From a virus, in IMG/VR virus record IMGVR_UViG_3300045589_000097, positions 1 through 37,199 of that record: a stretch of 37,199 nt of DNA. The stretch is one strand, 5' to 3'. A model generated the notes under the pieces. The model was not told where the DNA came from. It saw only the letters and a list, made by a program, of their open reading frames with translations, and searched no databases. The translations under genes and the position numbers were made by a program. Of the stretch, positions 2,552 to 36,247 are shown piece after piece. Position 1 is the stretch's first letter. The number at the start of each line of letters is the position of its first letter.

Positions 2552-2562
2552 TTGTGTGCCTC

Positions 2563-3027: not shown

Positions 3028-3039
3028 GATTTTTTCTCC

Positions 3040-3656: not shown

Positions 3657-3702
3657 TTGAAGATTCCTCCTGTAGTTTCTTGTATTATTCCTCGCTAAAT
3701 AT

Positions 3703-8022: not shown

Positions 8023-8023
8023 T

Positions 8024-8242: not shown

Positions 8243-8253
8243 GTGCTTTTCTC

Positions 8254-8382: not shown

Positions 8383-8385
8383 TGC

Positions 8386-10591: not shown

Positions 10592-10609
10592 CTTAGGGGG
10601 TGACTTCTA

Positions 10610-11050
10610 TTGGGATATTCAGAAAGTGAAGCGCTAGCTGCTGCCGATCATATGTCTAATCGATACGGAACTAGTGACCCTTTTAAGCTTGCTAAACTTG
10701 ACGGTATTTCCATTCGTCGAAGTGACCTAGGCAATAATATACTGGGATATAGCATGCAAATTAGCCGTATGCCACTGATAGTCTTGTCCTGGTCGCTTAA
10801 CGATTGTCAGGCAACAGCGGTTTGCGCCCATGAGCTTGGTCATTGCAAAATGCATCGAGGATTAGACACCAACTTTTTTAGCAGAGTGGGAGCTGAGCCT
10901 ATGGTTGGTGATAACGAGTATCAAGCAAACTGTTTTATGTTTGAGCTTGTTTTCGGCGATCAGGAAGTTTCTCCTATGAATTACAATGCTGTTCTGGATC
11001 AGTATGAACTACCCCATTGGATGTGGCGCTACTTTGAAGTTATACATTGA
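10610..11050 (+). CDS. ImmA/IrrE-family zinc metalloprotease (146 aa)
   Basis: HEXXH motif (AHELGHCKMH). TTG start 6 nt after GGGGGTGA. Classic pairing with the preceding repressor. Confidence 0.75.
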   Translation: MGYSESEALAAADHMSNRYGTSDPFKLAKLDGISIRRSDLGNNILGYSMQISRMPLIVLSWSLNDCQATAVCAHELGHCKMHRGLDTNFFSRVGAEPMVGDNEYQANCFMFELVFGDQEVSPMNYNAVLDQYELPHWMWRYFEVIH

Positions 11051-11080
11051 GTCACAAATAATATTGACGGAGGATTAAAA

Positions 11081-11659
11081 ATGGGTCACGAAACACAAAG
11101 ATCTCATCGAGAAATCAAAAAGCCATTTTGGAAAAGTTGGAAATTTTGGATTCTTATAGTAGCAATCATAATTCTAGCTAAGGGTGCAATCAGCTGTACT
11201 AATTACTTATTTTCTGAGCCCCCCGCTCCTTCTAAAAAAGTTTATAAATTGAACAGTAACAAATCGGTAAAGGCGATGCTGAAGCACTATGAACCTGATT
11301 TGAAAGTCACTGAAGTAGGCGGTGTTTATGATGACCCCAAATCAAAAACCGTTCTTGTAACCATTAAAGAAGACAGCGGCGTGGACGACAAATATGCGGT
11401 CAAAACGATGCATGCTGACATCGCGTCAGTTTGGAAGGCATTCAAGAAATCAAAAGGCAATGATTTTGCAAATATAGCTGTCATGGTGACTTATCCATTC
11501 GATGACGCAGGAGGTAATACACATCAGCTAAAGGCCATGACAGCCGATCTAGACGGGTCAAGACTGAATGATTTGAATTTGGAAGGATTCTCTGATGGCA
11601 ATGTTTCAGCGTTTGCTACGAAATACTGGCAACGCAATGACATGCCGTCTATAAAGTGA
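11081..11659 (+). CDS. N-terminally membrane-anchored protein, superinfection-exclusion candidate (192 aa)
   Basis: Single TM segment (FWILIVAIIILAKGAI) followed by a soluble domain. RBS GGAGGA. Located between the repressor module and the integrase. Confidence 0.6.
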   Translation: MGHETQRSHREIKKPFWKSWKFWILIVAIIILAKGAISCTNYLFSEPPAPSKKVYKLNSNKSVKAMLKHYEPDLKVTEVGGVYDDPKSKTVLVTIKEDSGVDDKYAVKTMHADIASVWKAFKKSKGNDFANIAVMVTYPFDDAGGNTHQLKAMTADLDGSRLNDLNLEGFSDGNVSAFATKYWQRNDMPSIK

Positions 11660-11757: not shown

Positions 11758-12771
11758 ATGCAAAAAAGAAAACGAGTCATTTGGGTGGACATAGCAAAAG
11801 GCATCACTATTTTTCTTGTTGTATTTGGCCACGCTATCCAAGGCATAGTGTCATCTAAAGGTCTTGATATTAGTGGACCAAACTGGTCGCTTTTTTTTGG
11901 GAAACAATTAATTTATGGTTTCCATATGCCTGCATTTTTTGTAATGAGCGGTTTTTTTACAGGATATATTCATCGGAAATTTATTGGCACCCTTACGGAA
12001 AAGGCAGTTCGCTTGCTTAAGCCTTATTTTGTTTGGAGCTTCATTACCGCCTCAGTGATGCAGGCTTTTTCCTCCTATACGAACTTTGGAATGGGCATTA
12101 GAGATTTCTTGATGTCTCCTATAATACCGTTCTCAGAATACTGGTATTTATACGTTCTTTTCTTTATTAGCTTATTTTACTTAATAATATATCGTATCTT
12201 TGGTTATCGAACAGTTTGGGCTGGCCTATTTGCTGGAATTATTCTTTTTTTAGCAGAACCAATACTGCCGAATGTCTGGATCTTTAAAACCTTTTCCAGA
12301 TTTCTAGTTTATTACGCGATTGGCGCTATAATCTTTAAGCGACTCGATCTTGTGAACAAAATTTTCTATAAAAAAGAAAGCATGATATTGCTTGCATCCA
12401 TAATAGCATTTTCGATTGTCAACATCATTTTATATGAGTTGCTTATGTATAATAGCCATATAGCCTTGTACTACTACTCATTTGTTACATCATTTTTTGG
12501 AGCCGCCTTTATATTTGCTCTGTCAATGAAAGTTGGCCAATTAAATAATCCGCTGACAAAATTTTTCCAATGGCTTGGGTACAATTCAATGCAAGTCTAT
12601 GTTATGCATTTGGTCCCCTTAGCAGGAGCCAGAGTCGTCTTAATGAAACTGGGAATTATAAGTAACTATTGGATGTTGTCTGTTACCATTACTATAATAT
12701 CGTTGGCAATTTGTTGCGTAGCAATTATTATCATTAAAAAAATTGGCATATGCAAGTTACTGTTTGGCTAG
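11758..12771 (+). CDS. Acyltransferase-3 family integral membrane O-acyltransferase (337 aa)
   Basis: N-terminal VIWVDIAKGITIFLVVFGH motif and about 10 TM segments. RBS AAGGGGAAG. Visibly more A+T-rich than the flanking phage DNA. Confidence 0.8.
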   Translation: MQKRKRVIWVDIAKGITIFLVVFGHAIQGIVSSKGLDISGPNWSLFFGKQLIYGFHMPAFFVMSGFFTGYIHRKFIGTLTEKAVRLLKPYFVWSFITASVMQAFSSYTNFGMGIRDFLMSPIIPFSEYWYLYVLFFISLFYLIIYRIFGYRTVWAGLFAGIILFLAEPILPNVWIFKTFSRFLVYYAIGAIIFKRLDLVNKIFYKKESMILLASIIAFSIVNIILYELLMYNSHIALYYYSFVTSFFGAAFIFALSMKVGQLNNPLTKFFQWLGYNSMQVYVMHLVPLAGARVVLMKLGIISNYWMLSVTITIISLAICCVAIIIIKKIGICKLLFG

Positions 12772-12935: not shown

Positions 12936-14120
12936 ATGGCATCAATTACCTCATATAAACTAAAAGATGGCAAAAAGGCCTGGGAATTCTATATATTCGC
13001 TGGTGTTGATCCTCAGACAGGAAAAGAAATAAAGATCCATCGGCGCGGTTTTCCAACCGAAAAAACAGCCCAGCAAGAAGCGACTTTAGCTGAGGCCGAA
13101 ATAATCAAAGGCCACTCTCACTACCAAACTGAAAGAATTTTAATGGCTGATTATCTTAATCAGTGGATCACTAAGCTTAAGGTTAATGTCAAAGAGGGAT
13201 CCATGATCATCTATCGATATAACCTTAAGAAATACATTATCCCAAAAATTGGGGATATTCGACTGGCCAAATACACGCTTAAGGAACATCAGGAGTTCAT
13301 CAGCAGTCTATTCAATGATGGCTTGTCGCTTAACACAGTAAAGCTCATCAATGGAACGTTGCACAATGCGTTAAAAAAAGCCGTTGCAATTGGGTACATT
13401 ACTAAAAACCCTACCGTTGGTGTCGAGTTCAGTGCGTATGCTAAAGACAATTCCAAAGAACTTCACTTTTGGACAAAAGATCAAGTTGGATCTTTTATAG
13501 AAGCAGCTGAAGAAGATAAAGAGCCTATGTGGCTATCATTCTTTGTGACACTGATTGACTGCGGGCTTCGTGTGGGTGAAGCCATGGCTCTTCGCTGGTC
13601 AGACATTGACTTCAACAAAAATACCTTATCAGTCAATGCAACACGAATCTATCGTGCTGAAACTGGATCAAACACTGGCAAAATAGCGCTTGATCGTCCC
13701 AAAACATTAAGCTCTAAGAGAACCGAATACATGACCGCTCGAGTAAATGACCTTCTTCAACAACAATATGAGCGCCATTTCAGCCACGGCAACGTACAAG
13801 GTTTTCGGTTTTCTACTAGCCACAATAACGATTTTGTCTTCACCTATTCGTCTGATGCAAAGTTTGGACAACCCCTCCGATCTCGGGCAACGACTGGTGC
13901 TTTTAATCGCATCACCAATCGGGCTGGACTTCCTCACATCCGTATCCATGATTTAAGACACACGCATGCCGTTTTAATGCGTGAGGCAGGATTAAGCCTT
14001 GATGACATCAAAGATGATCTTGGGCATAAAGACATTTCAACCACTCAAATTTATGCTGAAATCTCTCCGGCAAAAAAGAAAGAAAACCATCAACAATTCG
14101 AAAAATACCTAAATCAGTGA
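12936..14120 (+). CDS. int: Tyrosine site-specific integrase with an N-terminal arm-binding domain (394 aa)
   Basis: RVGEAMALRWSDID, HDLRHTHAVLM and GHKDISTTQIYAE catalytic motifs. N-terminus SYKLKDGKKAWEFY is arm-binding-like. Confidence 0.9.
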   Translation: MASITSYKLKDGKKAWEFYIFAGVDPQTGKEIKIHRRGFPTEKTAQQEATLAEAEIIKGHSHYQTERILMADYLNQWITKLKVNVKEGSMIIYRYNLKKYIIPKIGDIRLAKYTLKEHQEFISSLFNDGLSLNTVKLINGTLHNALKKAVAIGYITKNPTVGVEFSAYAKDNSKELHFWTKDQVGSFIEAAEEDKEPMWLSFFVTLIDCGLRVGEAMALRWSDIDFNKNTLSVNATRIYRAETGSNTGKIALDRPKTLSSKRTEYMTARVNDLLQQQYERHFSHGNVQGFRFSTSHNNDFVFTYSSDAKFGQPLRSRATTGAFNRITNRAGLPHIRIHDLRHTHAVLMREAGLSLDDIKDDLGHKDISTTQIYAEISPAKKKENHQQFEKYLNQ

Positions 14121-16990: not shown

Positions 16991-18151
16991 CTATAACTCC
17001 AAATACTTAGGATTATCAGAAAAATCAAGAGACATTGTTTGCCCATTAATCGACACGGAATGAGTAACTTCCCCAATTGGGGACCAATACACAATCATTG
17101 CTTTTGCTTTGCTGTGATATTCGAAGCAATATAGGTCTTGCATGAAGTCAGACGGGTTAGCAACCACGTTTACCTTTCTGTGAAACGTGAACCCATTCAT
17201 CTTTTTGATGAAATTATAATAGGCAAACGCAAGCGGGGTTAATGAAGCATTCGGGTTCAAAAATCCATAATTGTTTGCTCCTAAAGCATATTGCAAGATG
17301 ATGGGCCATCCAAGGTAGTCCAATATGAGCGTTTCTCTGATGGTATATTTGATTGCGTCTTGCATTGACCAGAGACCTTGCCAAGTATATTTTGGGTTAT
17401 CAACATCACGAGAATATCCAAATTCGGTAGCAATAAGTGGCAAAGATTTTGCTCTCGGTGACAAGTCATTCAAAGAAGAGTCTCTGATTAACACTTCCGG
17501 TCTGCCATTGTTTGCGTATGATGGTACATACGGGTGAAAGCTAATAAGGTCTACGTTTGAGTCGAATATACCAAAAGAATCAGCCATCTGAATGCTATCT
17601 TTCGCCTCTTTGTAATAAGCTATTGAGCATAGCGTTGCGTAGGTTGAACCGGGGTCATTTTCTTTTACGAATGCCCCCAGCCAAATATCAAAATCAGTCC
17701 ATGCTTTAATCGTTTCATCATTCTTAGACTCAGGGTAGGTCGTCCAAAAGCTTCCATCGGCTTCGTTAAAAGCCTCCCAAACGATATTGTTGCCCTTGTG
17801 ACTCAATACGAACTCTGACACCAATTCCTTGAACGCGGTCAGTCTTGATGGGGTGAACTGCGAATTGGTCTCTGTATTGTTTGATATAGGAGTTTCACCG
17901 TGGAATGAGATCAAAAGGGAGAATCCCCGTTTTTTTGCTTCTGATATAGCAAAATCATAGGTTGCGAAGTCACCAATCCCAGAATCAAGGGCGTCATTCT
18001 TAATGTACACATTCATTCGCATGTAGCTGAGGCCAATTGCTTTGGCTGCATCGAGCTGTTTAATCACATTGCCATCATAGGTCCATATCATGGTGCCAAG
18101 CTTATCAACAAGGGGCCTTCTTCTAGATACGTTGCTCGCGTTGCTGAACAT
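16991..18151 (-). CDS. Clan GH-A (GH5-like) glycoside hydrolase, probable tail-associated glycanase (386 aa)
   Basis: NIVWEAFNEADG (acid/base NE motif) and LIATEFGYS (nucleophile TEFG motif) at the spacing expected for a (beta/alpha)8 GH5-type enzyme. It is the last gene of the tail module. Confidence 0.65.
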   Translation of the reverse strand: MFSNASNVSRRRPLVDKLGTMIWTYDGNVIKQLDAAKAIGLSYMRMNVYIKNDALDSGIGDFATYDFAISEAKKRGFSLLISFHGETPISNNTETNSQFTPSRLTAFKELVSEFVLSHKGNNIVWEAFNEADGSFWTTYPESKNDETIKAWTDFDIWLGAFVKENDPGSTYATLCSIAYYKEAKDSIQMADSFGIFDSNVDLISFHPYVPSYANNGRPEVLIRDSSLNDLSPRAKSLPLIATEFGYSRDVDNPKYTWQGLWSMQDAIKYTIRETLILDYLGWPIILQYALGANNYGFLNPNASLTPLAFAYYNFIKKMNGFTFHRKVNVVANPSDFMQDLYCFEYHSKAKAMIVYWSPIGEVTHSVSINGQTMSLDFSDNPKYLEL

Positions 18152-18666: not shown

Positions 18667-19641
18667 TTATATTTTGAATACAGAGTCAATGTCAAGTGTT
18701 TTGATTGTCATATTGCTTATTTGAATAGCAAGATTTGATTGTCCTGATGTCAGATAGAGCTGGTTGCCGTTGATGGCATAGCTTGGGCTCTCCATTTGAT
18801 AACCTGGAATCAGTTTCTTAACATCAGTAATATCAACAAAAACGTCTGCTATTGATGATGTTCGATATACTATCCTGACATTCAATTCATACAAGGATGT
18901 TCCGCCAGCAATGTCAATAGGACTTTGTTGAGCAACGCCGGCACCATACTGATAGATCATGCACTTGATGTCTGGATAGAAGTTATCTTGATTTAAAAAA
19001 GTGACGCTGCCAAGGTGAACTTCAGATCGGATTGGCTCAAGATGATTCAAGCGCTCTTTCAAACTGACGTACGTATTTCCATCATCATCTGATCTTGCTT
19101 CAATTAATTCACTAAGTATCTTTCCCCCTGGATCAATATTCTTGAGAATATCTTTATTCGCATTAACAAAATCTGCCCAAGAAGAATGAGCATCATTAAC
19201 CCACTGGTTATATTGATTGATGATTTCGTTGAGATTGGAGATCCAATCCTTGGCACTTTCTTTAGTCATGTCTGCGGCTGGGTAAACAGCGAACATGATG
19301 TCGAAAGTCGACTGATTCCCGTTTGAATCAGTGAATGAGAAATAAGCAATCTTGATTTTCCCTGGAACTGATCCAAGTTGGCTTGGTACTTGATACGTAA
19401 ATTTGCCACCAGATGCATCTACAATTGAAAATCCAGTCGTATCTGATACGACTGCCTTACCGTCAGCGGTGTTTGCCATGAACGATGGCGTTAGCCCACT
19501 AATTGACACCGGGGTACCATTGTCCATCAGTGTGGCATCAATTACCACGGCGCCGGTTTTGTCTCCCTGACGCAAATATATAGGCTCAGGAGCGATGGCA
19601 TTTTTTGTGTCAAGAGTTACTTTGTATGTTCTGATTGCCAT
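18667..19641 (-). CDS. BppU-family baseplate upper protein (324 aa)
   Basis: N-terminus YKVTLDTKN...IYLRQGDKTGAVVIDATLMDNGTPV matches the BppU_N pattern. Confidence 0.7.
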   Translation of the reverse strand: MAIRTYKVTLDTKNAIAPEPIYLRQGDKTGAVVIDATLMDNGTPVSISGLTPSFMANTADGKAVVSDTTGFSIVDASGGKFTYQVPSQLGSVPGKIKIAYFSFTDSNGNQSTFDIMFAVYPAADMTKESAKDWISNLNEIINQYNQWVNDAHSSWADFVNANKDILKNIDPGGKILSELIEARSDDDGNTYVSLKERLNHLEPIRSEVHLGSVTFLNQDNFYPDIKCMIYQYGAGVAQQSPIDIAGGTSLYELNVRIVYRTSSIADVFVDITDVKKLIPGYQMESPSYAINGNQLYLTSGQSNLAIQISNMTIKTLDIDSVFKI

Positions 19642-21718
19642 TTGGTATCAGTCCCTCCATTTTTTCTAAATCTTCATAGGTGTCTTTTGTATCAACGAGG
19701 CGCTGATCCTCAAATCCTCGGCGCTTGCCTTTGAGTTCCCAACCAAACGATGAATTAGGACTGTCTGACGAAACGATGAAGTAGTCATTGCCACGTTCAG
19801 AAACCCAGAAGTGCGCATCACTGTAAGCAGTCAAGAAAACTTGGTAAGGCTTGTCTGTATTAATCAAATCAAAAACGAGCGGATCAATGTCAACTCGCAC
19901 TGTTTTGCCATTGCCCGTTTTACTCTCGCCAATATCGCCTACATAGTTTTCTGCCAACTCATATGCAGGAGTAGCACGAATGCCGTCACGGGTGACCTGA
20001 ACAGCGTTTTTAGAGCCATTGTATACATTGAAATTTCCCCACACATCAGTCTCAGAACTCGTGACGGTTAGATGTGTATTCACAACCCCAGTTGACGTGT
20101 CGGTTGCCCCGATGTTGACCTTTTCCGGAGAGGAAAGCCACAGCTTGTTTTCGGCAGTAATGAATTTCGAGCCCCCGCCAGCGAAGTTAAGGTCGGAATC
20201 TATCTTAGCGTTAATCTGAACCAGCGGCTTACTTTGCGTCGAGGTCGTGGGAACGGTGATAACGCCGACACTTTTACCGTTCCCGTCCGTTTGTGCCAAC
20301 CTGAGCGTGTTACCGTCATGGTTATTGATGTCAGTACCGGTTACCATTTGGTTAATACCGCCGATTAGTTGACTACCCTTGTACAGCTCCATAGCTCCAC
20401 CTTTTAGGCGAATTTTGTAGTGGCTTGCTGGGTCTTCTGTTTCGTAGGTGATACCAGAAATGAGGTTGCCGAATAGCCGATCAGCAACGACACCATCAGC
20501 AGTGACAGCGCTTTTGAATGTTTGACCCCCATCAGTAGATACGCCCAGACCAGCACTATTGAGAATCACAACCTTATTTGCGTCCGACTTATCAACAGCG
20601 ATGATTCCTTGATCAGTGAATCTAAGTTCTGTTCGTGCGGCAAGAAGACTATTAGTAGCCAACTGCACCTGTGACGTTAGCCACTCATTAGGCACTGGTA
20701 TTTTACCGGCGGCAACATTAGACAATGCTGATTGTGATGTCTTCTGTTGCTCGGCAAATGACAGGCTGCCACACTCAACTTCTGTTTTGGTCCTTGTGCC
20801 GCGAATATCATAATCACTGGTTACCTTGATGATTCGAACCTTGTCACTAAAGTTAAGGCTCTCATCAATCACTGTGATGTAGTCACCGGGGTTTGCCATC
20901 GCGTATTTATAGCCGACAGATTGTAGGTCAACAAGATTTAGGGTGAGTGAGATGTTCCAACTCTTGTCGACTTTTTCTTTCACAGCAGCAAGCAAATTTT
21001 CGGCAATCGTGTACCGCTCATCAGCAATAGGAACCGCTTCAATGGCGCCAAACTTCGGATAGTAGTAATCATATAGCGGCGATTTGTACTCAACTGTCAG
21101 GCGCTGGCTTGTGGTGTCATTCGGTTTGCTGTAGGCACCATAACCACGACCATAGGTGGCAAATGTTGTGTTATCAGTCTGAATCTCCGCTGTATCCAAG
21201 TTGAACTTTTTACGAACGATGGTAGACAGATCAGACCCCATAGTTGGCACGACATGAACAACTGTGCCCTCCACATAGAACTCAACGTTTGCTTGATCGA
21301 TAATGTCATTGAATAGCGACAGACGGTCACTCATGCCCCAGTCTTGCTTTTCAAAAGCCGCAACCGAGGCCGTGTTGTCGTACGTGTACCCTGTGCCAGC
21401 AAACAAAGCGTCAAGATAGCTGGAGAATGGGTGCGACCCATTCCAAGTTTCGTAGAAACCGGTCTTACTCATTTTGTAGAAGAATGCCTGAACGGCGCTG
21501 AACGCAACGGTGTTCTCTTTGTCATTCTTTGTGTACGTGACAACAACGTATTCTTCATCAAGAAACGATAGCGTCCAGCCCTTAGCAATGTTTTCTTTGA
21601 CGTCTTGGCCAAAGTAGATTGTCCCAGACAGTGACTTCTCGCCATTCACCGCATCGGTTTTCTCAATCTCGCACTGGGCCTGATATTCATTATTCTTAAC
21701 GTCTTTGAATGTAATCAA
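19610..21718 (-). CDS. Tail-associated protein Tal (prophage tail endopeptidase-type N-terminus), 702 aa
   Basis: Size and position after Dit. The N-terminal region resembles siphovirus Tal proteins. Confidence 0.75.
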   Translation of the reverse strand: MITFKDVKNNEYQAQCEIEKTDAVNGEKSLSGTIYFGQDVKENIAKGWTLSFLDEEYVVVTYTKNDKENTVAFSAVQAFFYKMSKTGFYETWNGSHPFSSYLDALFAGTGYTYDNTASVAAFEKQDWGMSDRLSLFNDIIDQANVEFYVEGTVVHVVPTMGSDLSTIVRKKFNLDTAEIQTDNTTFATYGRGYGAYSKPNDTTSQRLTVEYKSPLYDYYYPKFGAIEAVPIADERYTIAENLLAAVKEKVDKSWNISLTLNLVDLQSVGYKYAMANPGDYITVIDESLNFSDKVRIIKVTSDYDIRGTRTKTEVECGSLSFAEQQKTSQSALSNVAAGKIPVPNEWLTSQVQLATNSLLAARTELRFTDQGIIAVDKSDANKVVILNSAGLGVSTDGGQTFKSAVTADGVVADRLFGNLISGITYETEDPASHYKIRLKGGAMELYKGSQLIGGINQMVTGTDINNHDGNTLRLAQTDGNGKSVGVITVPTTSTQSKPLVQINAKIDSDLNFAGGGSKFITAENKLWLSSPEKVNIGATDTSTGVVNTHLTVTSSETDVWGNFNVYNGSKNAVQVTRDGIRATPAYELAENYVGDIGESKTGNGKTVRVDIDPLVFDLINTDKPYQVFLTAYSDAHFWVSERGNDYFIVSSDSPNSSFGWELKGKRRGFEDQRLVDTKDTYEDLEKMEGLIPNGNQNIQSNS

Positions 21719-22552: not shown

Positions 22553-25423
22553 CTACCCTCCAATCGGTCGAAAGTAGCTGCTAACGGCTGCGTCATTAGC
22601 GTCCACTTCCTTTACCATGCTATTAATACCGTTCTTATCAACGTTGTTTTGAACGTAAACGTTAGGCGTGATTCGTTCACTTGCATCAATTGACTGCGTG
22701 ACATCCCCAGAACTGAATTGCGTGCCAGCCATGGACAAGTTACTGATATTGGCTGACATGTTGGCAGAAATATCGCTTGCCATGCCAGAAACCGTCTTCT
22801 GAACATCTCCGAATGACTTTTGCAGTCCTTGATTCAACCCGGCCATAATCGCATTACCAGCAGGAATTAACAACTTTGCGTCGTAGCTAATTGGACCTTT
22901 GTGCTTCTTGATCCACGAAGCAATTCCACCAACAAAACTGGTGATCGCATTCCACTTGCTTTTGAGGCCGCCTAAGAAGCTATCCATGATTGCTTGTCCG
23001 GCCGCACTTAAGCTTATTTTTGCAAGAGAATACATGGTGTTCCGGATTGACGAAGTTGTGCTGCTAGCTTTTCCTGACATCTGCCCAAAGCTCCCGCCTA
23101 AGCTGCTTGCTAAGCTCGATCCCGATTTTTTGCCAGAAGATGACATCTTTTCTAATGCGCTCCCAACAACATTAGACAAGCTATTTGCTGATCCCTTGCC
23201 ATTTGATGACATTCCTGACATTGAACCGGTAACGTTTTTGGCAAGACTGCTGATTGATCCAGAACCGTTTGTCCCCAATAGGGACAATGAGTTCCCTGAA
23301 GTTTGTGCAAAATCATTTGTCGTGTTTTTGCCAGCTGTTGAGGCGCCATTAAGATTGGCAATCGCGTTGATTAAGTTTGCAATGCCGTTTGTTGCAAGGG
23401 CAACTCCTACGCCAATAAGCAAGATGGCAGCACCAAAAGCGAGAATACCAACAGCTCCAGCTGTTAGAAGAGGGCCAAGCAGTGCAAATACAAGAGCAAG
23501 CGCACCAACAGAAACCGCCATTGTAATCATTAACTGATTAGAATTACCTCCAGAAGCTTGAAAGTTAGCAAAAGCATTCACTAACAGCGCTAATCCAGCA
23601 GATACTAACAATATGCTTGCACCAAAAGCAATCATACCGATGGCGCCCGCATTTAATGCAGGACCAACCAATGCGAACACGACAGCAAGTCCTCCTATGG
23701 ACAATGCAATAGCTGCCATCAGTTCAGCGGCGTTACCGCCTGCAGACTGAAATTTGGCAAATGAATTTACCAAAATAGCCATACCTGCTGCCACGAGTAC
23801 CATTGCTGCGCCAAACGCGATTAATCCTATAGCATTCTTTTGAAATGTAGGAGCTACGAGCTTAGCCACAATCATCAACGCTGCAATTGATACCGTCATT
23901 GCAGCCAAAGCAACAAGACCGTCAGTGCCCGTTTTTGCTAACTGGGCAACCGCAAGAGCCAGTAAAGCAAATCCGGCTGCTGCTAATCCAATTCCAAGCC
24001 CAGCACCAGCAGCTTTTACGCCCATTGCAGCAATCTGACCAGCAGATGCACCCATTGGCTTTGCTGTATCTCCAGCGGCTTTTCCTAATCCTTTGATCAG
24101 CTTAACTGGTGCACTAATAGTTTTAACAAGTTTTCCAATCGCCATTGATAATAGGCCAAAAGCCACTAATACAATCGCAATTACTGGTGACCATGCAATT
24201 AATCCTTTGACAAAAGAAGCCATTGGACTTTTGGACTTGTTAAGCCACGTTGCAAAATCACCTAACGCGTTAGCCACTGCTTTAATTTGTGGCGCAATTG
24301 TGCCAATGCTAGTCTTGATAACAGAATCGAATGCGTCTTCCATCTGAGCAATTGACTGACCAACGTTCTTTGTCATGTTGTTTGCGTTGTCAGATAGATA
24401 TTTGTTTGCTGATTTGGCTGTCTTACTTACTTTTCCTAGAGAATCAGAATAGGCATCCCAACCAGACTTGCCACTCTTGGTCTTCTTCTCCGTCTGAATA
24501 AGTAGTGGAAGCATAGCTTTGGCACCAGCAGCACCGTATAAGTTAGTCAATGCCGCAACCTTTTGAGACTTAGACATGCCATCAGTCGCTTTTGCAACCT
24601 CTTTAAGAATTTGTGGGAATGGCTTGAATTTTCCTTGAGCATCTGTATAAGTAATACCCAATTCTTTCATTTCGCCAGCAGCCACCTTTGACGGGCGTGC
24701 CATCAGAGTTAAAGCGTGAGCCAAGTCTTGAGAACCTTGCGCAGCACCAAGACCAGCATTACTCATCAGCCCAATGGCAGTTGATGTGTCTTTGATACCA
24801 ATTCCCAATGTGGCAGCAGTAGAGCCAACGTTAGCAAATGCTTGTCCCATGTCTTCGACTTCAGCATTGGACATATTGGCATTCAAGGCCAGAATTGCAG
24901 AATCTTTAGCAGCGTTTTTAGCCCCACCGCCCCAGATATTCATGGCTTGCTGAACGGTGGTAGCAGTGCCAGCTAGATCTGCACCAGCAACAGCAGAAGC
25001 CTTAGCAATAGCTGGGAACTCTGTTTTCAAGTCCTTGATTGAAGCACCGTTACGAGCCATTTCAATCATAGCGTTACCGGCATCTTCAGCACTGATAGGC
25101 AGTGTTTTACCCAACGATAGTGCTTCTGTTTCGAGATCCTTCATGTCACCCTTCAGTGACTTATTACTAGAACCAGCAATAACAGCCGCCTTGTTGATTG
25201 ATTCCTGGAATGTCCCGTAACTCTTGATAGCACCAGCGGCCATAGCACCAACAGCAAGGCCAGCAACTGTGCTCGCTTTACCGATGTTGGTCATAGCCCC
25301 ACCGACGCGTTGACCTGCATTTGAAGCAGCATCAGTACCAGCCTTAACAGATGCTGAAAGTTTACCCATTGCCGCTTGGAACGGTGCGATGTTTGCTGTG
25401 AATGTTGCGACGACGTTTGCCAT
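22553..25423 (-). CDS. Tape measure protein (956 aa)
   Basis: Longest gene, A/G-rich with hydrophobic repeats, following the G/GT chaperones. Confidence 0.9.
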   Translation of the reverse strand: MANVVATFTANIAPFQAAMGKLSASVKAGTDAASNAGQRVGGAMTNIGKASTVAGLAVGAMAAGAIKSYGTFQESINKAAVIAGSSNKSLKGDMKDLETEALSLGKTLPISAEDAGNAMIEMARNGASIKDLKTEFPAIAKASAVAGADLAGTATTVQQAMNIWGGGAKNAAKDSAILALNANMSNAEVEDMGQAFANVGSTAATLGIGIKDTSTAIGLMSNAGLGAAQGSQDLAHALTLMARPSKVAAGEMKELGITYTDAQGKFKPFPQILKEVAKATDGMSKSQKVAALTNLYGAAGAKAMLPLLIQTEKKTKSGKSGWDAYSDSLGKVSKTAKSANKYLSDNANNMTKNVGQSIAQMEDAFDSVIKTSIGTIAPQIKAVANALGDFATWLNKSKSPMASFVKGLIAWSPVIAIVLVAFGLLSMAIGKLVKTISAPVKLIKGLGKAAGDTAKPMGASAGQIAAMGVKAAGAGLGIGLAAAGFALLALAVAQLAKTGTDGLVALAAMTVSIAALMIVAKLVAPTFQKNAIGLIAFGAAMVLVAAGMAILVNSFAKFQSAGGNAAELMAAIALSIGGLAVVFALVGPALNAGAIGMIAFGASILLVSAGLALLVNAFANFQASGGNSNQLMITMAVSVGALALVFALLGPLLTAGAVGILAFGAAILLIGVGVALATNGIANLINAIANLNGASTAGKNTTNDFAQTSGNSLSLLGTNGSGSISSLAKNVTGSMSGMSSNGKGSANSLSNVVGSALEKMSSSGKKSGSSLASSLGGSFGQMSGKASSTTSSIRNTMYSLAKISLSAAGQAIMDSFLGGLKSKWNAITSFVGGIASWIKKHKGPISYDAKLLIPAGNAIMAGLNQGLQKSFGDVQKTVSGMASDISANMSANISNLSMAGTQFSSGDVTQSIDASERITPNVYVQNNVDKNGINSMVKEVDANDAAVSSYFRPIGG
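23345..23866 (-). repeat. About 189-nt (63-aa) tandem repeat, 2.7 copies, inside the tape measure gene
   Basis: LVAPTFQKNAIGLIAFGAAMVLV...FAKFQSAGGN, LVGPALNAGAIGMIAFGASILLV...FANFQASGGN, and LLGPLLTAGAVGILAFGAAILLI... Confidence 0.7.
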
Positions 25424-25878
25424 TAGCTACCACCTCCAAATGCGGCATTGAGTTTCTTAATCATTTCGACATCAGGCTTTCTTTCTCGATTGCCACTGCG
25501 TTTGAGTATCTTTTGTTCAGCTTTATCAATGTTTTTATAGCCAGTTTTAACTGACCGTTTAGGGTTCTTTGCGTTTTGAATGTTCGCAATGTTGACAGCA
25601 AGCTCCATCAGGTCGCGGCGCATGTCAACATCACGCAAAAATGACCCCTCCAGCATTGAACGAGCTTCCCACATGTATAATCTAAATGGCATATCGGGAT
25701 CGTATATCCCATGACGAGCAAAATCGGTTAAGAGAGACTCTTCTTCATTGCGTCCAGGGTATCCTTGGTCGCTGCTTCTTGAATTTTCTCTTCGGCTGTC
25801 TTGTTCTTCTTGTCCGTCAAGGCTTTCCCGTATTTTTCGGTCAAGTTCAGCCAACGTTGTGCTGCGTGTTTGAAAAAA
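25423..25878 (-). CDS. Tail assembly chaperone, -1 frameshift extension (gpT-like part of the G-T fusion)
   Basis: This frame is -1 relative to 25728-26168 and is open from just upstream of the slippery site to 25423, where its stop overlaps the tape measure start. Confidence 0.65.
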   Translation of the reverse strand, partial: FFQTRSTTLAELDRKIRESLDGQEEQDSRRENSRSSDQGYPGRNEEESLLTDFARHGIYDPDMPFRLYMWEARSMLEGSFLRDVDMRRDLMELAVNIANIQNAKNPKRSVKTGYKNIDKAEQKILKRSGNRERKPDVEMIKKLNAAFGGGS

Positions 25879-26168
25879 CCGGATTCATGAAGCTCCTGCT
25901 CAACTTCTTTGAACAGCTCTTGCGACTTGCCGTCTTCTTCGGCCTTGTCGAGCGCGTCCATGATGTCATCATCTGTGTATGACTTCGGTAACAGCACGCG
26001 TAATGCTTTGAATAATGCCATATCGTCATCAGTCACGAACGCCAGCCAGATTGAGCTTGCGCCATCGTTGGCACCTTCGGCAGAACTGTATAGCTTATTT
26101 GCGCGGAACAGCGCACGGAAGTTGAACTTTGCTTCTACTGGTTGACCTTTTACTTGAATTTCTAACAT
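25728..26168 (-). CDS. Tail assembly chaperone (gpG-like), 146 aa
   Basis: Located between the major tail and tape measure genes. Acidic. Overlaps the -1 frame ORF. Confidence 0.75.
   Translation of the reverse strand: MLEIQVKGQPVEAKFNFRALFRANKLYSSAEGANDGASSIWLAFVTDDDMALFKALRVLLPKSYTDDDIMDALDKAEEDGKSQELFKEVEQELHESGFFKHAAQRWLNLTEKYGKALTDKKNKTAEEKIQEAATKDTLDAMKKSLS
25872..25878 (-). promoter_or_regulatory. Candidate -1 programmed frameshift slippery heptamer T TTT TTC
   Basis: The minus strand reads GGT TTT TTC in the G frame. The -1 frame opens two codons upstream (TGA then ATC CGG TTT TTT...). Confidence 0.55.
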
Positions 26169-26292: not shown

Positions 26293-26943
26293 TCATTTTG
26301 ACGTTGTGGTCGTGGTTGTACTGGTTGACGTCGTGGTCGTAGTAGCAGAACCATCTGCAAACTCGCCTTCCTTTTCACCCGGGCGTTCGAATGCATAGAG
26401 CTGATCGAGCATTGCAACTTGTTCATCAGAAAGTGGGAACGTTCCCGGTGTACCGTCTTCATTCTTGTCAGCAAGCTTGCCGATGATGTTCAAGGTGAAG
26501 TCGATTTCGGAGAAACTGTCTTCATCAGAGATGTCGGCACTATCAACAACACCATATCCAAACATCGCTGGATAAGCCTTGTGGTCGCCTTCTACCACGG
26601 CCAACCGTTCATCAACAATGACACGCCATACTTTAACCTGACGGCCATTGTGCTTGGCATCAATGATGATTTCATGTGCTTTATCACCCGGAACCATGTA
26701 CGTTGTCAGCTCAATGCTGTCTTCGTTGGTGGATGCGGCAATGATACGGCCCATCTTGGTTTGTTCATCAAGAGAATCACCTTCAATGCTTGTATCGCCA
26801 GACTCTTGGTGAGCCGGCAGGATTGCAGGACTTCCAATTGGTGCTACTTTAGGATCTGTTGATTGGATGAAGTACCAAACATCTTTACCACGATAGGGGG
26901 TATCTTTCACAAATTCGATACCGTTGTTTACTGGATCTGCCAT
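26293..26943 (-). CDS. Major tail (tube) protein with a Thr-rich C-terminal tail (216 aa)
   Basis: Position and size fit. ATG at 26943 after AAGGAG. The C-terminus is SATTTTTSTSTTTTTTSK. Confidence 0.8.
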   Translation of the reverse strand: MADPVNNGIEFVKDTPYRGKDVWYFIQSTDPKVAPIGSPAILPAHQESGDTSIEGDSLDEQTKMGRIIAASTNEDSIELTTYMVPGDKAHEIIIDAKHNGRQVKVWRVIVDERLAVVEGDHKAYPAMFGYGVVDSADISDEDSFSEIDFTLNIIGKLADKNEDGTPGTFPLSDEQVAMLDQLYAFERPGEKEGEFADGSATTTTTSTSTTTTTTSK

Positions 26944-26945
26944 AA

Positions 26946-27311
26946 TCAATAATCTCCTTCTAGAGTAATGAGAAGCATGCAGCGGCGTAATGGTGTACTC
27001 TCGCCCATGCTTGTGTCGATTGAATTAGATGCCGTTAATGACTGCCATCGTGTCACTTTACTAAGCGACCATTTCACCTTGCGAACGAAGTCCTCCCATT
27101 CAGCCGGTGGAGTGTCGATGCTGTCGTAGATGTCAATCTGCTGACCAACACTCGATAGTGTCCCCGTTTTAGATGACATGTCAGCATCAACGTGAACGTT
27201 CACAAAAACTAATGGCAATGCGCTCTTAGCGTCAGGCTGAACGAACACAGGGTTAAGACCGTCAGCAGTCAATTGCGTTTGAACATCTTCATACCATTCC
27301 GAGAGTGTCAT
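26946..27311 (-). CDS. Tail completion/terminator protein (121 aa)
   Basis: Called from gene order in the head-tail joining block only. Confidence 0.55.
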   Translation of the reverse strand: MTLSEWYEDVQTQLTADGLNPVFVQPDAKSALPLVFVNVHVDADMSSKTGTLSSVGQQIDIYDSIDTPPAEWEDFVRKVKWSLSKVTRWQSLTASNSIDTSMGESTPLRRCMLLITLEGDY

Positions 27312-27682: not shown

Positions 27683-27971
27683 TAGCAGCACCTCCAGACA
27701 CGATGAATACGGTTGACTTGCGGTTTACAAATGTCTTGTTGATTGTCCATTTGATGCCGTCAAGCTCGATTTCATTCACAGCCTTTACTGGGTTCTTTAC
27801 GTGTACTTCGTAGGCCATAGTGTTCACCAGTCCATATACAGACAGCTCCTGTGCACTGGTGATTGGGATTGTCAGGCAAGTTACCGTTTCTCGTGTTTCT
27901 GTCGGCCTATCATGCAATGGATCAGCTGGCGGCGACTTACGGATTAGGGTAATTCGATTGTTGTATCTCAT
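27675..27971 (-). CDS. Head-tail adaptor / head closure protein (98 aa)
   Basis: Size and order fit. The MRYNNRITLIRKS...TVTCLTIP pattern resembles Phage_H_T_join proteins. Confidence 0.65.
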   Translation of the reverse strand: MRYNNRITLIRKSPPADPLHDRPTETRETVTCLTIPITSAQELSVYGLVNTMAYEVHVKNPVKAVNEIELDGIKWTINKTFVNRKSTVFIVSGGAANG

Positions 27972-28309
27972 ACGAACCTCATCCCCGGTCTGCGGCTTTG
28001 CGATGACTCACGGTAGACATCGAGAGCGTCAGCATACTTAGATAAATCGATGGCTTCCCATGTGTTGGATACGTTGCCTTCGGTGCCGCTTTGCTTGCCT
28101 TCATCACCAATACGGTTGTACATCTTCACCACAATGTCCTTGATTACCCATGTGACCGCATCCGGAACAGTCTGGTTAACTACACCATCTTGATTGATAT
28201 AAGCCAACACGCGCGCTGTGGCGTCCTCAATTAGCTCATTCAGCAAGTTATCTTGCATTGTATCGGTCAAACCAATACGTAGCTTTACACTGTCTAAAAT
28301 CGCCATCAT
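27968..28309 (-). CDS. gp6-like head-tail connector protein (113 aa)
   Basis: MAILDSVKLRIGLTDTMQDNLLNELIEDATARVLAYIN is the typical gp6-like N-terminus. Confidence 0.7.
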   Translation of the reverse strand: MMAILDSVKLRIGLTDTMQDNLLNELIEDATARVLAYINQDGVVNQTVPDAVTWVIKDIVVKMYNRIGDEGKQSGTEGNVSNTWEAIDLSKYADALDVYRESSQSRRPGMRFV

Positions 28310-29184
28310 TTCACCGCCTTTACTGCTTGCACGTACTTGTATGAGCACTTGGACTTGTCAACGAAACTCAAATCATCTTCAAATGGCGTGTGATTAACAT
28401 ACTGCCCTTTGAAGAACAAGCGTTTGTCATTCACAGTAACGCCTGCGTTGTGCATGATTTTAGTTTCGTTCCATCGCTTGACTGGATCAGTAGCCCAACA
28501 AAAATCGAGCTCATTACTGATGACGGGCCCGATGTTGAAGTACATCATATTCCAAAGCTGCGACCACATTTCAGCAGTCCATTTTTGGATATTACTGTCG
28601 ACTGTCTGCAAGTATTGCCACAGTCGGTTGCTGTCGGCATAAACCTTGCGCCAGTATTCTGCTGACGGGTGACTGATGATCCATTGAGCACCGCCAGAAT
28701 TATGATTGATAGTTTCAAGCGACGCCAACGTGACTCCGACAATGTCAGCCATGTGTTTCAGGATGTCTTCTCCGTGTTCACACTGCTTGATATAGTCAAC
28801 GCTGATGTAGCTCAACGTGTTACTGCACAACCATCGATCAGGCTTTGCCTTGAGTTTGCGAAAGTCTGGACGTTTTCGGAAGATGACATCGCTGTCGAAG
28901 TAGAAATAATCCTCGTTCTCACGATCGGGGTCTTCCGCAAGATATTGCCACCAAAGCCAAGGCTTCACAGACGGGATATATTGCTTGTCTGTGCGCTTGT
29001 CGGTATACGTGTGTACTTCTACTCCATATTTGCTTGCAAGCGTTTCTGTCACCTTAGAATCATGCACAGTGAAGAGCAAAATGACATCTCTCATGTCAAA
29101 CCCGACACTTTGCAGATTGGTTAGGCAGACTTCCAACTCCCACTCAAAACGCTTGATAGCGGGTTGACACAAAATAAGCTTCAT
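28306..29184 (-). CDS. Glycosyltransferase-like (GT-A fold, DxD) protein inside the head module (292 aa)
   Basis: ATG at 29184 lies 5 nt after GGAGG. Begins with the beta-strand KLILCQPA, contains YFYFDSDVIF (hydrophobic-DxD-hydrophobic), and has a Trp-rich C-terminal half. Fold assignment is inferred, not searched. Confidence 0.5.
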   Translation of the reverse strand: MKLILCQPAIKRFEWELEVCLTNLQSVGFDMRDVILLFTVHDSKVTETLASKYGVEVHTYTDKRTDKQYIPSVKPWLWWQYLAEDPDRENEDYFYFDSDVIFRKRPDFRKLKAKPDRWLCSNTLSYISVDYIKQCEHGEDILKHMADIVGVTLASLETINHNSGGAQWIISHPSAEYWRKVYADSNRLWQYLQTVDSNIQKWTAEMWSQLWNMMYFNIGPVISNELDFCWATDPVKRWNETKIMHNAGVTVNDKRLFFKGQYVNHTPFEDDLSFVDKSKCSYKYVQAVKAVK

Positions 29185-29252
29185 TCTGTCCTCCAATCAG
29201 CCGCCCGGTTTCCCGTACTGTCCCATTTCGATAGGCGACTTGCATCAATTAA

Positions 29253-30170
29253 TTAAGCTTGCGAAGTAGTCGTTGTGGTAGACGGTGCCACAGTCGAAGT
29301 TGTGGTAGTTGCTGACGTCCCAGCAGTGAAGATTGCCTGACGGTTGTCATCGCTGATCCACTGGCCTGCCTTACCAGCACCTTGCAAAGCAACACCCGCA
29401 AAGTTCTCAGATTGAATTGTCCGAACAACATTGATACCCGTGAATGCGCGACCAATGTTGTCAGGTGAGAAGATGATTGCCTTACCAGCCATGTAGCGAG
29501 TAGGCGTCTTAGTTACAATAATGTCGCGGAAACGCATGATACCATTTTCGTCGATGTTAACGGCAGAGCCTTTGAAGCTGGTTACCAGCTGATGATCGAT
29601 GATCGCGTTGTATACTTCGGCAGTAACGTATGCACGAACCGGGACAACAACTTCAAGATCCGTGTAACGTTCGGATGCCGCTTCGAACACCTTGTTGACA
29701 TCATCAACCGCACCAAGGTCAGCAGCAGCACTATCAACCAAGTAGGCGCCCAGCTTGCCGTTAAACAGACGCGTCTTAGCTTGTGCTTGCAAGTTCAGGC
29801 GGTCAGCAACTGCAGCATTCAGATCGTTGTTGACAGTGAGCTGATCGATACCTTCGTTGAAACTCCAGCCGAAGGAATACGGTACATCGATGTCGCCGTA
29901 GATGATTTCCTTCATTGGCCCGAAGCGGTTGGAGTTGCTGGTGCCACTGCCAAACGCAACGTTAGGATCAGTGTTATAGGTGCCAACAGCAACAGGCACA
30001 TCATTTGCCTTAACACTGAACGCAATCGCGTTATTTTGAATGCCATCAAGTGCTTGCAGTGCACCGAATGTCGGGGTGAACGTGCTTTGAACACCGAAGA
30101 CGGTTTGCATCAAGCCAATAAACTGTTTCTGATAAAGACGTACTGGTAAATTGTTGTTTTCTGTAGCCAT
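29253..30170 (-). CDS. Major capsid protein with a Thr-rich C-terminal tail (305 aa)
   Basis: Follows the scaffold gene. The C-terminus is TSATTTTSTVAPSTTTTTSQA. Confidence 0.8.
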   Translation of the reverse strand: MATENNNLPVRLYQKQFIGLMQTVFGVQSTFTPTFGALQALDGIQNNAIAFSVKANDVPVAVGTYNTDPNVAFGSGTSNSNRFGPMKEIIYGDIDVPYSFGWSFNEGIDQLTVNNDLNAAVADRLNLQAQAKTRLFNGKLGAYLVDSAAADLGAVDDVNKVFEAASERYTDLEVVVPVRAYVTAEVYNAIIDHQLVTSFKGSAVNIDENGIMRFRDIIVTKTPTRYMAGKAIIFSPDNIGRAFTGINVVRTIQSENFAGVALQGAGKAGQWISDDNRQAIFTAGTSATTTTSTVAPSTTTTTSQA

Positions 30171-30183
30171 GATTAGCTACCTC

Positions 30184-30723
30184 CTATTTTTTATATTGTG
30201 CCATGATTTTCTTAAATGGATCGTCGGCACCATCAAGGGCAGAAGCACCATTCTTAGGCGGATCCGTTTGCAGCTTAGATTCAACCTGCTTGTTTACCGT
30301 CTCTTGAATTGTCTTTTGAATGTTCTCAACAGCCGTCTTGATCTTGTCAGCATCGCCCAAAGCAACCAACGGGTCAGCAAAATCAGTTGGCAGTCCTTTA
30401 TCAACGAGCAATGACTTTGTGCTTGTCGATAGTTCGCGCCGATTGAGTTCAGCTTCACGCTTGTCCAAGGCCGCTTGACGTTGTTTCTCAAGTTCTTGTG
30501 CCTTCTCGTCGGCCGACATCTTAGCCAACCGTGCGCCTTCACTCTTGGCTTCCTCAAGCGCCTTAGCCTGTTCTGCTTCCCACTTAGCCCTGGCTGTTTC
30601 CAGCGCCTTAGCTGCGCGTCTATCGGCCTCGCTGTCAAGCTGAGCCTGCGTATATGTGGTTGGTGCCTGACTGGTGGTTTCAGTTGTCTCGACTTCTTCT
30701 TGAGTTTGTGTATCTTCTGCCAT
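30184..30723 (-). CDS. Scaffolding protein (179 aa)
   Basis: Acidic N-terminus and A/E/K-rich helical body. Lies upstream of the capsid gene. Confidence 0.75.
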   Translation of the reverse strand: MAEDTQTQEEVETTETTSQAPTTYTQAQLDSEADRRAAKALETARAKWEAEQAKALEEAKSEGARLAKMSADEKAQELEKQRQAALDKREAELNRRELSTSTKSLLVDKGLPTDFADPLVALGDADKIKTAVENIQKTIQETVNKQVESKLQTDPPKNGASALDGADDPFKKIMAQYKK

Positions 30724-35098: not shown

Positions 35099-36247
35099 TC
35101 ACACATAGTAAATGGCACGGGTATCATGATCGCTGTATTCGACCAGCTCAAACGTTTTGTGAGCAACCACGCCAATGTCATCAGTCCACTTGTCGGTTGG
35201 CTTGCGTGTCGACACTTGACGCTGAACAAATCCGCCTAGGTCTTTGCTCATCTCTGAATGCAGATGCCCCGTGAACAGCTCGCGATTCTGTGCTGTGCCT
35301 AACATGAAGCCGAACTCATCTAGGTATTTTGCAAGGTAGTTGTTCTTACCCTTGTCTCCGTGAGTGGCGCCAATGAAGTTATGGCCTAACATTGTGCCTT
35401 TGTAATGCTTCAGTGATATATCCCAAGTGATGTTCGACTGGTTGCTGTAGGCACGTTTCAATAGACGTGCAAACATATATCCAACTGACGGGTCGTGGTT
35501 ACCTGGCGCATACATGACCTCACACTCATTGGCGTTCTTAATGATTGCTTCAATCAGTGTCTCGAAGTATTGCTCCATTTCGTTCACAGTCTCGCCCAGA
35601 TCGGTTGTTTCGAGCTGTGTACCCTTTGCTGTGGTCGAGTTGATGTTATCCACATGAGCCAGATCACCGCCCAGAATGAGCAATATTTTGGCGTAGTGGC
35701 CGCGTTGAATGATCTCTAGTTGCCGTTTAAGCGATTCAGCATAGATGTCAAACGTGTGACCGTTGAAATGCGTGTCGAAAGCAGGAATGACCAGATAGCG
35801 ATCTGATTCCACAAAAATAGGAGCCTTAGCTTGGTATGGCTCCTTGTGTGTGATGATGTCATTCATCAATGATTCATATTGTTCCGCTTCAACTAACGGC
35901 CTGATTTGTATCTTGCTCTGGTACAACGTTGCTTCAGGCGTCTGCTTCCAGAAGTTGCTTGTGGCACGTACAAGTTCCCACTTAGTGTAATCATACCCGT
36001 GAGCTTCCAGAACCTCTCTAGGCGTCATTTTGTGGCCTCTGACAACCTTTAGAATGGTTTCACTGGACTGTGTACCGTCTGAATCGTATTCGTTCTTGAC
36101 TGGTTTTTGGAACTCGATGCCAAGCCGTTTTGCTTTGCCTTGAAGCGCGTCGTAGCTAATTCCTAGCTTGTCGGCCGTTTCTCGTCTAGTAAAGCCTTCA
36201 GAGGCGAGCTTCCTAATGTCACCGATCTGTTCATCTGTCCATTGCAT
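35099..36247 (-). CDS. N-terminal HTH fused to a calcineurin-like metallophosphoesterase (382 aa); first gene of the late operon
   Basis: HTH FTRRETADKLGISYDALQGKAKRLG. Phosphoesterase motifs DTHFNG, GGDLAH, GNHD, GATHGD, GHLH occur in canonical order. RBS GGAGG. Confidence 0.75.
   Translation of the reverse strand: MQWTDEQIGDIRKLASEGFTRRETADKLGISYDALQGKAKRLGIEFQKPVKNEYDSDGTQSSETILKVVRGHKMTPREVLEAHGYDYTKWELVRATSNFWKQTPEATLYQSKIQIRPLVEAEQYESLMNDIITHKEPYQAKAPIFVESDRYLVIPAFDTHFNGHTFDIYAESLKRQLEIIQRGHYAKILLILGGDLAHVDNINSTTAKGTQLETTDLGETVNEMEQYFETLIEAIIKNANECEVMYAPGNHDPSVGYMFARLLKRAYSNQSNITWDISLKHYKGTMLGHNFIGATHGDKGKNNYLAKYLDEFGFMLGTAQNRELFTGHLHSEMSKDLGGFVQRQVSTRKPTDKWTDDIGVVAHKTFELVEYSDHDTRAIYYV

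Follow-up and report, generated by a model that had tools for sequence, protein, structure and literature searches.

The IMG/VR virus record IMGVR_UViG_3300045589_000097 (positions 1 to 37,199, the whole stretch of DNA analysed here and referred to below as the window) belongs to a temperate siphophage of Lacticaseibacillus, which encodes in its head-tail region a protein of 292 amino acids (aa) that, judged by its modelled structure, is almost certainly a glycosyltransferase. The enzyme probably glycosylates the Thr-rich C-terminal tails of two virion proteins encoded nearby, the major capsid protein and the major tail (tail-tube) protein. More broadly, we lean slightly towards a scenario in which this unrecognised glycosyltransferase family, together with a portable oligo-Thr C-terminal tag, forms a self-contained 'glyco-tagging' module that gives many Firmicutes phages a mucin-like O-glycan layer. 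The gene had been singled out in an earlier reading of the DNA letters (hereafter the sequence-only reading), which suspected a virion O-glycosylation system; its open reading frame (ORF) lies exactly where that reading put it, at 28306-29184, on the minus strand, which had been left unstated.

An AlphaFold2 (AF2) model of the protein, built from 47 homologues, has a predicted local distance difference test (pLDDT) of 97 and a predicted template modelling (TM) score of 0.93. It consists of a single Rossmann-like alpha/beta/alpha domain with a central mixed sheet, that is, the glycosyltransferase A (GT-A) fold that the sequence-only reading had surmised from two short motifs. Both motifs fall into place in the model: the MKLILCQPA start, claimed as a Rossmann-like strand (KLILCQPA), is a beta strand spanning residues 2-8, and within YFYFDSDVIF the strand YFYF (residues 92-95) is followed by D97-S-D99, a DxD at the end of a hydrophobic strand, as in GT-A enzymes. 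A Foldseek search of the PDB with the model gave 286 matches at an expectation value (E) <= 0.001, and the best 50 are almost all retaining GT-A enzymes. These best matches include the UGGT catalytic domain (GT24), WbbM, glycogenin, LgtC, XXYLT1 (GT8), Skp1 alpha-galactosyltransferase and GT6 enzymes, namely blood-group and alpha-3-Gal transferases (E 1e-8 to 5e-6, probability 1.0, TM score ~0.5, identity 7-13%). In the viral structure library BFVD, the model comes closest to an uncharacterised phage protein (TM score 0.92) and to Orf49 of Lactobacillus phage LP65; among neighbours that bear a name, GT8 and GT6 proteins are the nearest. From these structural neighbours, almost all of them retaining, we infer a retaining mechanism.

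Searches with sequence profiles gave a different picture. No Pfam model, those for GT8 and GT24 included, matches the protein at E <= 1, no NCBIfam model matches it, and no PDB entry is found by sequence (phmmer) or by family profile. Of the two checks for a glycosyltransferase fold that the sequence-only reading had called for, the structural one therefore came out in its favour and the profile one came back empty. The full-length match of the protein is to PHROG 4417, labelled 'unknown function'.

Conservation was scored over 146 representatives that are 29-49% identical to the query. Y69, D99, G165, W202, M206, H245 and K259 are invariant, and D97 (>= 90%), A166, Q167 and G248 nearly so; the DxD noticed in the sequence-only reading is thus a family-wide feature. 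On the strength of this pattern we propose D97-x-D99, H245, K259 and the G165-A166-Q167 loop as catalytic residues. The conserved residues form a pattern reminiscent of GT8 enzymes, in which the DxD behind a central strand is joined by His-x-x-Gly near the C-terminus and then by a Lys (here H245-N-A-G248 ... K259). In the HxxGxxKPW motif of GT8 the His binds the metal and the Lys the diphosphate. Compared with that motif in LgtC (1G9R sequence), the spacing in the window enzyme differs and PW is absent, so that the equivalence is one by analogy. The members of GT8 and GT24 (LgtC, glycogenin, XXYLT1, the GT8 domain of WbbM and the UGGT catalytic domain) are the best structural matches. We nevertheless reject a filing under GT8, given the lack of any Pfam match at E <= 1 and a failed hhalign alignment to LgtC; going by the model, we would rather place the enzyme in a family of its own within the GT8/GT24 structural neighbourhood.

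The family is large, unannotated and mostly phage-borne, with 872 clusters at 50% identity in an exhaustive profile search. The exact sequence of the window enzyme falls in a cluster whose 744 members, mostly L. paracasei proteins, are named 'hypothetical' or 'prophage protein'; one UniRef record calls a family member 'Glycosyl transferase family 8'. Lengths of 450-780 residues are found in 60 of the 150 best-scoring clusters. A second glycosyltransferase domain was recognised in at least 15 of 64 long members (Glyco_transf_7C in nine, GT2 in four, and single matches to GT6, GT25 and two other GT2-like models), and others carry a methyltransferase or radical-SAM/SPASM domain. Going by these domain assignments, this is the company expected for a glycan-building enzyme. 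A distant two-domain member (P0161; locus L156, 2-7931) lies in a bacterial cluster resembling those for ribosomally synthesised and post-translationally modified peptides (RiPPs). This cluster also encodes a radical-SAM enzyme, shows a faint LanC-like match and contains a precursor-like ORF that starts with a double-glycine leader and ends in ...KTTTAAPAPTNPTPSVE. Family members may glycosylate peptides in settings other than phages as well.

For the proposed acceptors, we defined a Thr run as >= 7 Thr in any 12 residues and scanned all ORFs of >= 60 aa in six frames of the 37-kb window. The capsid and tail-tube proteins were the only two with such a run, which exceeds what chance would give and bears out the earlier remark on their Thr-rich ends. 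Outside the tails, Thr makes up 5-7% of these two proteins. DNA slippage or a trinucleotide repeat was considered as the origin of the runs and rejected, as the codons are a mixture of ACT, ACC, ACA and ACG.

Close relatives bear on the link between enzyme and tails. The L. plantarum phages ATCC8014 and phiJL-1 share the structural module of the window phage (capsid 69-71% and tube 75-79% identical), and neither genome encodes the enzyme. Their capsids, of 286 aa, end ...AIF(S/T)ATPKA, 19 residues short of the window capsid, and their tubes have no Thr run. We searched for further relatives with the tail-tube protein, taking one genome per bacterial species and trimming the tails from the queries so that they could not bias retrieval. 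This search recovered 18 loci: five with the enzyme, 12 without it and one that is uninformative, being cut 689 bases upstream of the tube gene. All five enzyme-positive loci, from four Lacticaseibacillus species and Latilactobacillus fragifolii (with an enzyme only 43% identical), have oligo-Thr tails on both tube and capsid; Thr tails are found in 0/12 of the enzyme-free loci, which come from Lactiplantibacillus, Weissella, Periweissella and Streptococcus. The enzyme-free relatives that have no tails are 67-79% identical to the proteins of the window.

A capsid-seeded search of viral contigs, again with a tail-trimmed query and counting enzyme-free loci if the flanking DNA sufficed, found a capsid Thr tail in 24/25 enzyme-positive loci and in 0/17 enzyme-free ones. 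The remaining enzyme-positive locus, L133, is frameshifted: in this prophage (around 8001-8845) the enzyme is present, the capsid tail region is in another frame (...PPHPLWHRLPLLPLRTLN) and the tube gene is truncated, the cause being either gene decay or assembly errors. When all enzyme-positive loci gathered are taken together, 89/92 have a C-terminal run at the threshold; the other three (L037, L041 and L052) have TTTTT/TTTTTT-SHA-type tails with 5-6 Thr, just below it. Thr-run ORFs number 0.88 per 10 kb in enzyme-positive loci versus 0.06 in enzyme-free loci, and both Thr-run ORFs in nominally enzyme-free loci come from contigs cut off from the enzyme (L091 and L069, at contig ends), leaving no genuine Thr-run C-tail in ~320 kb of enzyme-free loci. 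Co-occurrence, including its counterpart in close relatives that have neither feature, thus backs the enzyme-tail link put forward in the sequence-only reading, and it is strong in related and unrelated phages alike.

The enzyme-tail pairing recurs in about ten unrelated structural modules. The phages concerned are those of Lactobacillaceae, Enterococcus, Lactococcus, Staphylococcus and Clostridium, and their capsid and tail families, which are not homologous, are represented by phiFL1A, bIL285, P1046, phiCTP1, VPE25, SA2, Iacchus, L041/R9.1, L100 and L157 (named examples in Table 1). The enzyme gene always directly follows the capsid gene, the tail-tube gene or another Thr-rich gene. In R9.1 and L041 the enzyme is ~88-90% identical to that of the window and the capsid is unrelated (PHROG 29, not 840), with the ending KTTTTTTSHA; the tube of these phages ends TTTTSTSHA. 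On this comparison of sequences, the enzyme gene is a mosaic cassette. An 85-kb metagenomic phage has a two-domain relative of the enzyme following three structural genes with internal T/S mucin-like tracts.

Several of these genomes have peculiarities of their own. In phiCTP1 (L083) the portal (2356-3945) and gp11, a 132-aa head protein (7134-7532), both bear C-terminal Thr runs; therefore, the set of tagged virion proteins varies among phages. The SA2 (L087) tube, encoded at 19117-19713, ends ...TTTTTTTTP, and an overlapping out-of-frame ORF (19667-19930) encodes ~60 further, mostly Thr, residues: a programmed frameshift may yield a longer Thr-rich variant of the tube. In the 138-kb herellevirus Iacchus (L088) the enzyme gene sits among replication genes, and the two Thr-rich proteins are a Thr-tailed protein of 168 aa (18955-19461) and one of 128 aa (19610-19996) that is almost all TTTTTSTTTVKP repeats and is annotated 'major tail protein'.

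What the enzyme-free relatives have in place of the pair is a Big_2 immunoglobulin (Ig)-like decoration domain, either encoded by a small gene of its own behind that of the capsid or attached to the C-terminus of the tail tube. In ATCC8014 and phiJL-1 a 64-75 aa Big_2 gene occupies the slot of the enzyme gene, in line with the earlier statement that this slot normally holds small structural genes only. The enzyme-free loci L136, L144, L151 and L155 have Big_2 fused to the tube C-terminus. In L116 (capsid at 8001-9119, tube at 10573-11223), the capsid is 94% identical to that of the window and a fused C-terminal Big_2 replaces its Thr tail, a natural swap. In phage lambda gpV and SPP1 gp17.1*, C-terminal additions to the tube protein decorate the outer surface. 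Because relatives carry Ig-like decoration domains at the same positions, the Thr tails are very probably external on the virion, and the shared capsid and tube positions point to an equivalent role in surface decoration. Big_2 differs in being a protein domain, with no enzyme-plus-tag system and no post-translational step; the combination of Thr tail and enzyme appears to be an alternative to it.

The gene lies among the late genes. The head-tail region, 88% identical in DNA to that of phage R3.3, runs on the minus strand in the order scaffold, capsid, 292-aa ORF, connector, head-closure, neck and terminator genes, tail tube, chaperones and tape measure. The neighbours of the ORF are thus a PHROG major head protein and a Phage_connect_1 protein, i.e. 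the capsid gene and gp6-like connector named in the sequence-only reading. The likely ATG of the connector gene (28309-28307) shares ATGA with the TGA stop of the glycosyltransferase gene, an overlap that suggests translational coupling of the two within the late operon; at the other end, a TTG at 29196 falls inside the Shine-Dalgarno region. Promoter and terminator signals in the 26-31 kb region do not exceed shuffled expectation. Because of the strong Shine-Dalgarno sequence, the ATGA overlap and signals not above chance, the ORF looks like a co-transcribed, translationally coupled late gene. Its product is soluble: it has no transmembrane segment and no hydrophobic stretch long enough to span a membrane.

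From these observations we propose the following mechanism. A soluble, metal (Mn)-dependent, retaining GT-A enzyme would be produced late, alongside the structural proteins, in the cytoplasm, where it would transfer sugar from a host nucleotide-sugar, most likely a uridine diphosphate (UDP)-hexose, to Thr and Ser residues of the oligo-Thr tails on the major capsid and tail-tube proteins, in an O-linkage of alpha configuration. The outcome would be a mucin-like sugar coat on head and tail, serving as surface decoration for adhesion, stability or shielding; enzyme and tag would constitute a portable two-part module, moved between unrelated structural gene sets. Direct glycosylation of protein side chains by retaining GT-A enzymes has precedents in glycogenin, the large clostridial toxins and the polypeptide GalNAc-transferases. 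Mucin-type GalNAc-transferases (GT27) and the systems that glycosylate serine-rich-repeat adhesins offer a parallel, with retaining transferases acting on unstructured Thr/Ser tracts of a surface protein to give a dense glycan brush. However, there is no homology, the phage enzyme is cytoplasmic and has no lectin domain, and the phage acceptor tracts are much shorter (~10-20 residues), with structural proteins of a virus as the proposed targets.

To our knowledge, a sugar coat on virions has so far been shown only for mycobacteriophages. Our full-text literature search turned up nothing on glycosylated virions or Thr-rich tails among phages of Firmicutes, which agrees with, and widens, the earlier statement that glycosylation is not known for lactobacillus phages. 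In mycobacteriophages such as Che8, glycosylation of capsid and tail-tube subunits is reported (Freeman et al. 2023, Cell Host Microbe 31:1216, as cited in PMC11256854 and PMC10877033). The resemblance to Che8 lies in phage-encoded glycosyltransferases that have the major capsid and tail-tube subunits as presumed targets, giving a glycan coat, and in the fact that distant members of the window enzyme family are fused to GT2, GT25 and Methyltransf_24, the domain types of gp108-110. As in the mycobacteriophage type, the window capsid and tube have S/T-rich C-terminal extensions (23 and 20 residues), which enzyme-free relatives do not have and which would serve as acceptors. However, the Che8 enzymes (gp108, GT2 plus methyltransferase; gp109, GT2; gp110, GT25) are unrelated to the window family: hhalign of gp108 against it gave no alignment (probability 0.2%), while for gp109 and gp110 the comparison was one of Pfam assignments. 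In Che8 three genes are clustered at the right end of the genome, and in the window phage a single one lies within the head-tail operon; the capsid and tail proteins of Che8 have the endings ...FNKTGS and ...QYSDGS, with no oligo-Thr runs; and its hosts are Actinobacteria, not Firmicutes. Enzyme family, very simple acceptor tag, gene arrangement and host phylum are all different.

Several points weigh against the proposed mechanism. Support for tail glycosylation is computational throughout. Sequence-profile searches give no link to any CAZy-type family, and hhalign of the window family against LgtC, the sequence of which was validated against 1G9R, returned no alignment (probability 1.4%). 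Because many of the loci are closely related, independent events are fewer than the raw counts suggest. The HK97-type capsids whose genes adjoin that of the enzyme in VPE25, bIL285 and SA2 lack a Thr tail; therefore, adjacency to the enzyme gene is not always the marker of an acceptor. Finally, L116 has no enzyme within 8 kb and yet keeps the Thr tail on its tail tube, the only real exception to co-occurrence; this orphan tail could reflect a recent loss of the enzyme or its supply in trans.

Could the enzyme act elsewhere, with the tails a bystander? Prophage GT-A enzymes acting on wall polymers are known, the phage is temperate (integrase at 12936-14120), and it encodes a further candidate for envelope modification, Acyl_transf_3; the 292-aa protein might thus be a lysogenic-conversion or superinfection-exclusion factor that, like TarP or Gtr, glycosylates teichoic acids or cell-wall polysaccharide of the host, with the Thr tails unrelated to it. 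We consider this very improbable: the gene is part of the late structural operon, where it overlaps that of the connector, and lies outside the lysogeny module; the protein is devoid of membrane segments, and a scan of the large ORFs yielded no flippase, bactoprenol or Gtr-type partner; VPE25, SA2 and the herellevirus Iacchus carry the enzyme without annotated lysogeny genes near the locus; and the tight link to Thr tails on virion proteins would be left unexplained. Phage DNA, a host protein or a small molecule could also be the target, the tails being spacers or unglycosylated adhesive tails carried along by linkage. Such a reading draws on the indirect identification of the acceptor, on the L116 tail without an enzyme nearby and on the relative in the bacterial RiPP-like cluster, by which the family is not restricted to virions. 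Yet the precursor-like ORF there ends in a Thr/Pro-rich stretch, fitting a peptide-Thr acceptor, and the scan of the large ORFs revealed no gene for a hydroxymethylase or for base modification. Linkage, moreover, cannot account for tails on non-homologous proteins in at least ten lineages, nor for the joint loss of tails and enzyme in relatives that are 67-79% identical, and we judge this possibility to be quite improbable.

A division of labour on the tails themselves is an unlikely variant as well: the tails would be glycosylated, but a host enzyme would add the first sugar and the phage enzyme extend or cap it, or the reverse. The structural neighbours XXYLT1, UGGT and LgtC do extend existing glycans, many relatives are fused to a second transferase domain, suggesting multi-step glycans in some lineages, and the orphan tail of L116 could be served by another enzyme in trans. 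Against this, tails are absent where the phage enzyme is absent, across several host genera, which would be unexpected if hosts primed usefully, and it is well known that retaining GT-A enzymes can glycosylate side chains directly. We therefore favour modification of the Thr tails by the phage enzyme itself.

If this is correct, virion glycosylation would not be peculiar to actinobacteriophages but widespread in phages of gut, dairy and pathogenic Firmicutes, and users of the module would include laboratory- and therapy-relevant phages of Enterococcus, Staphylococcus, Lactococcus and Lactobacillaceae. It would bear on phage therapy, through antibody recognition and clearance of Enterococcus and Staphylococcus phages, and on phage behaviour in mucus and in dairy fermentations; cryo-electron microscopy maps and virion proteomics would be affected, with C-terminal peptides missing or mass-shifted. 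A function would be assigned to the large 'hypothetical' family PHROG 4417, and the module would represent an evolutionary alternative to Ig-like decoration domains, the swap between the two at identical sites providing an experimental handle on the purpose of phage surface decoration. A very short tag (such as GSATTTTTSTSTTTTTTSK) and one soluble enzyme would make a tool for cytoplasmic O-glycosylation, transferable to any protein and usable for glycoengineering.

Table 1. Features of the window, Big_2 examples and enzyme-tail pairs in phages with unrelated structural modules
Genome or locus	Feature	Position	Strand	Details
Window	Glycosyltransferase-like ORF, 292 aa, 34.6 kDa	28306..29184	minus	ATG at 29184, stop TGA at 28308-28306
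Window	Shine-Dalgarno GGAGGA of glycosyltransferase gene	29189..29194	minus	4 nt 5' of ATG, read from sequence
Window	Major capsid protein, 305 aa, proposed acceptor	29253..30170	minus	PHROG 840 major head protein, E 3.5e-121
Window	Capsid C-terminal oligo-Thr tail AGTSATTTTSTVAPSTTTTTSQA + stop, proposed O-glycosylation tag	29253..29324	minus	S/T = 15/23
Window	Major tail (tail-tube) protein, 218 aa, TP901-1 family, proposed acceptor	26293..26949	minus	PHROG 238, E 1.3e-49; TIGR02126, E 1.7e-22
Window	Tail-tube C-terminal oligo-Thr tail DGSATTTTTSTSTTTTTTSK + stop, proposed O-glycosylation tag	26293..26355	minus	S/T = 16/20
Window	gp6-like head-tail connector	27968..28309	minus	Pfam Phage_connect_1, E 1e-15
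Window	Scaffold	30184-30723	minus	
Window	Chaperones and tape measure	22553-25423	minus	
L084	Big_2, enzyme-free relative	5688-5915		
L085	Big_2, enzyme-free relative	12128-12322		
L136	Big_2, enzyme-free relative	10561-11340		
L151	Big_2, enzyme-free relative	10548-11426		
Enterococcus phiFL1A	Thr runs: capsid and tube			Enzyme gene right after tube gene
Lactococcus bIL285	Thr run: tube			Enzyme gene after capsid gene
Lactococcus P1046	Thr runs: capsid-protease fusion and tube			Enzyme gene after tube gene
Clostridium phiCTP1	Thr runs: portal, gp11 and tube			Enzyme gene after tube gene
Enterococcus VPE25	Thr run: tube			Enzyme gene after capsid gene
Staphylococcus SA2	Thr run: tube			Enzyme gene after tube gene
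L. plantarum herellevirus Iacchus	Two Thr-rich proteins			Enzyme gene directly after both

Elsewhere in the window, two overlapping minus-strand ORFs (25423-25854 and 25728-26168) between the tail-tube and tape-measure genes take the position of the usual pair of tail-assembly chaperones that arises through programmed frameshifting. The distal tail module, also on the minus strand (16991-18151, 18667-19641 and 19610-21718), comprises a protein that weakly matches GH5 cellulases (E 1.6e-5), a BppU_N baseplate protein and a Prophage_tail protein; the first of these may be a component that binds the receptor and degrades glycans. In the lysogeny region, a plus-strand gene at 11758-12771, adjoining the integrase gene on the same strand, encodes the membrane acyltransferase of the Acyl_transf_3 family mentioned above (337 aa, Pfam E 3.9e-32), probably a lysogenic-conversion gene O-acylating an envelope polymer of the host. 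Upstream of the terminase genes, a 382-aa protein (35099-36247, minus strand) combines a GcrA-like N-terminus with a weak metallophosphatase match, an unusual combination.

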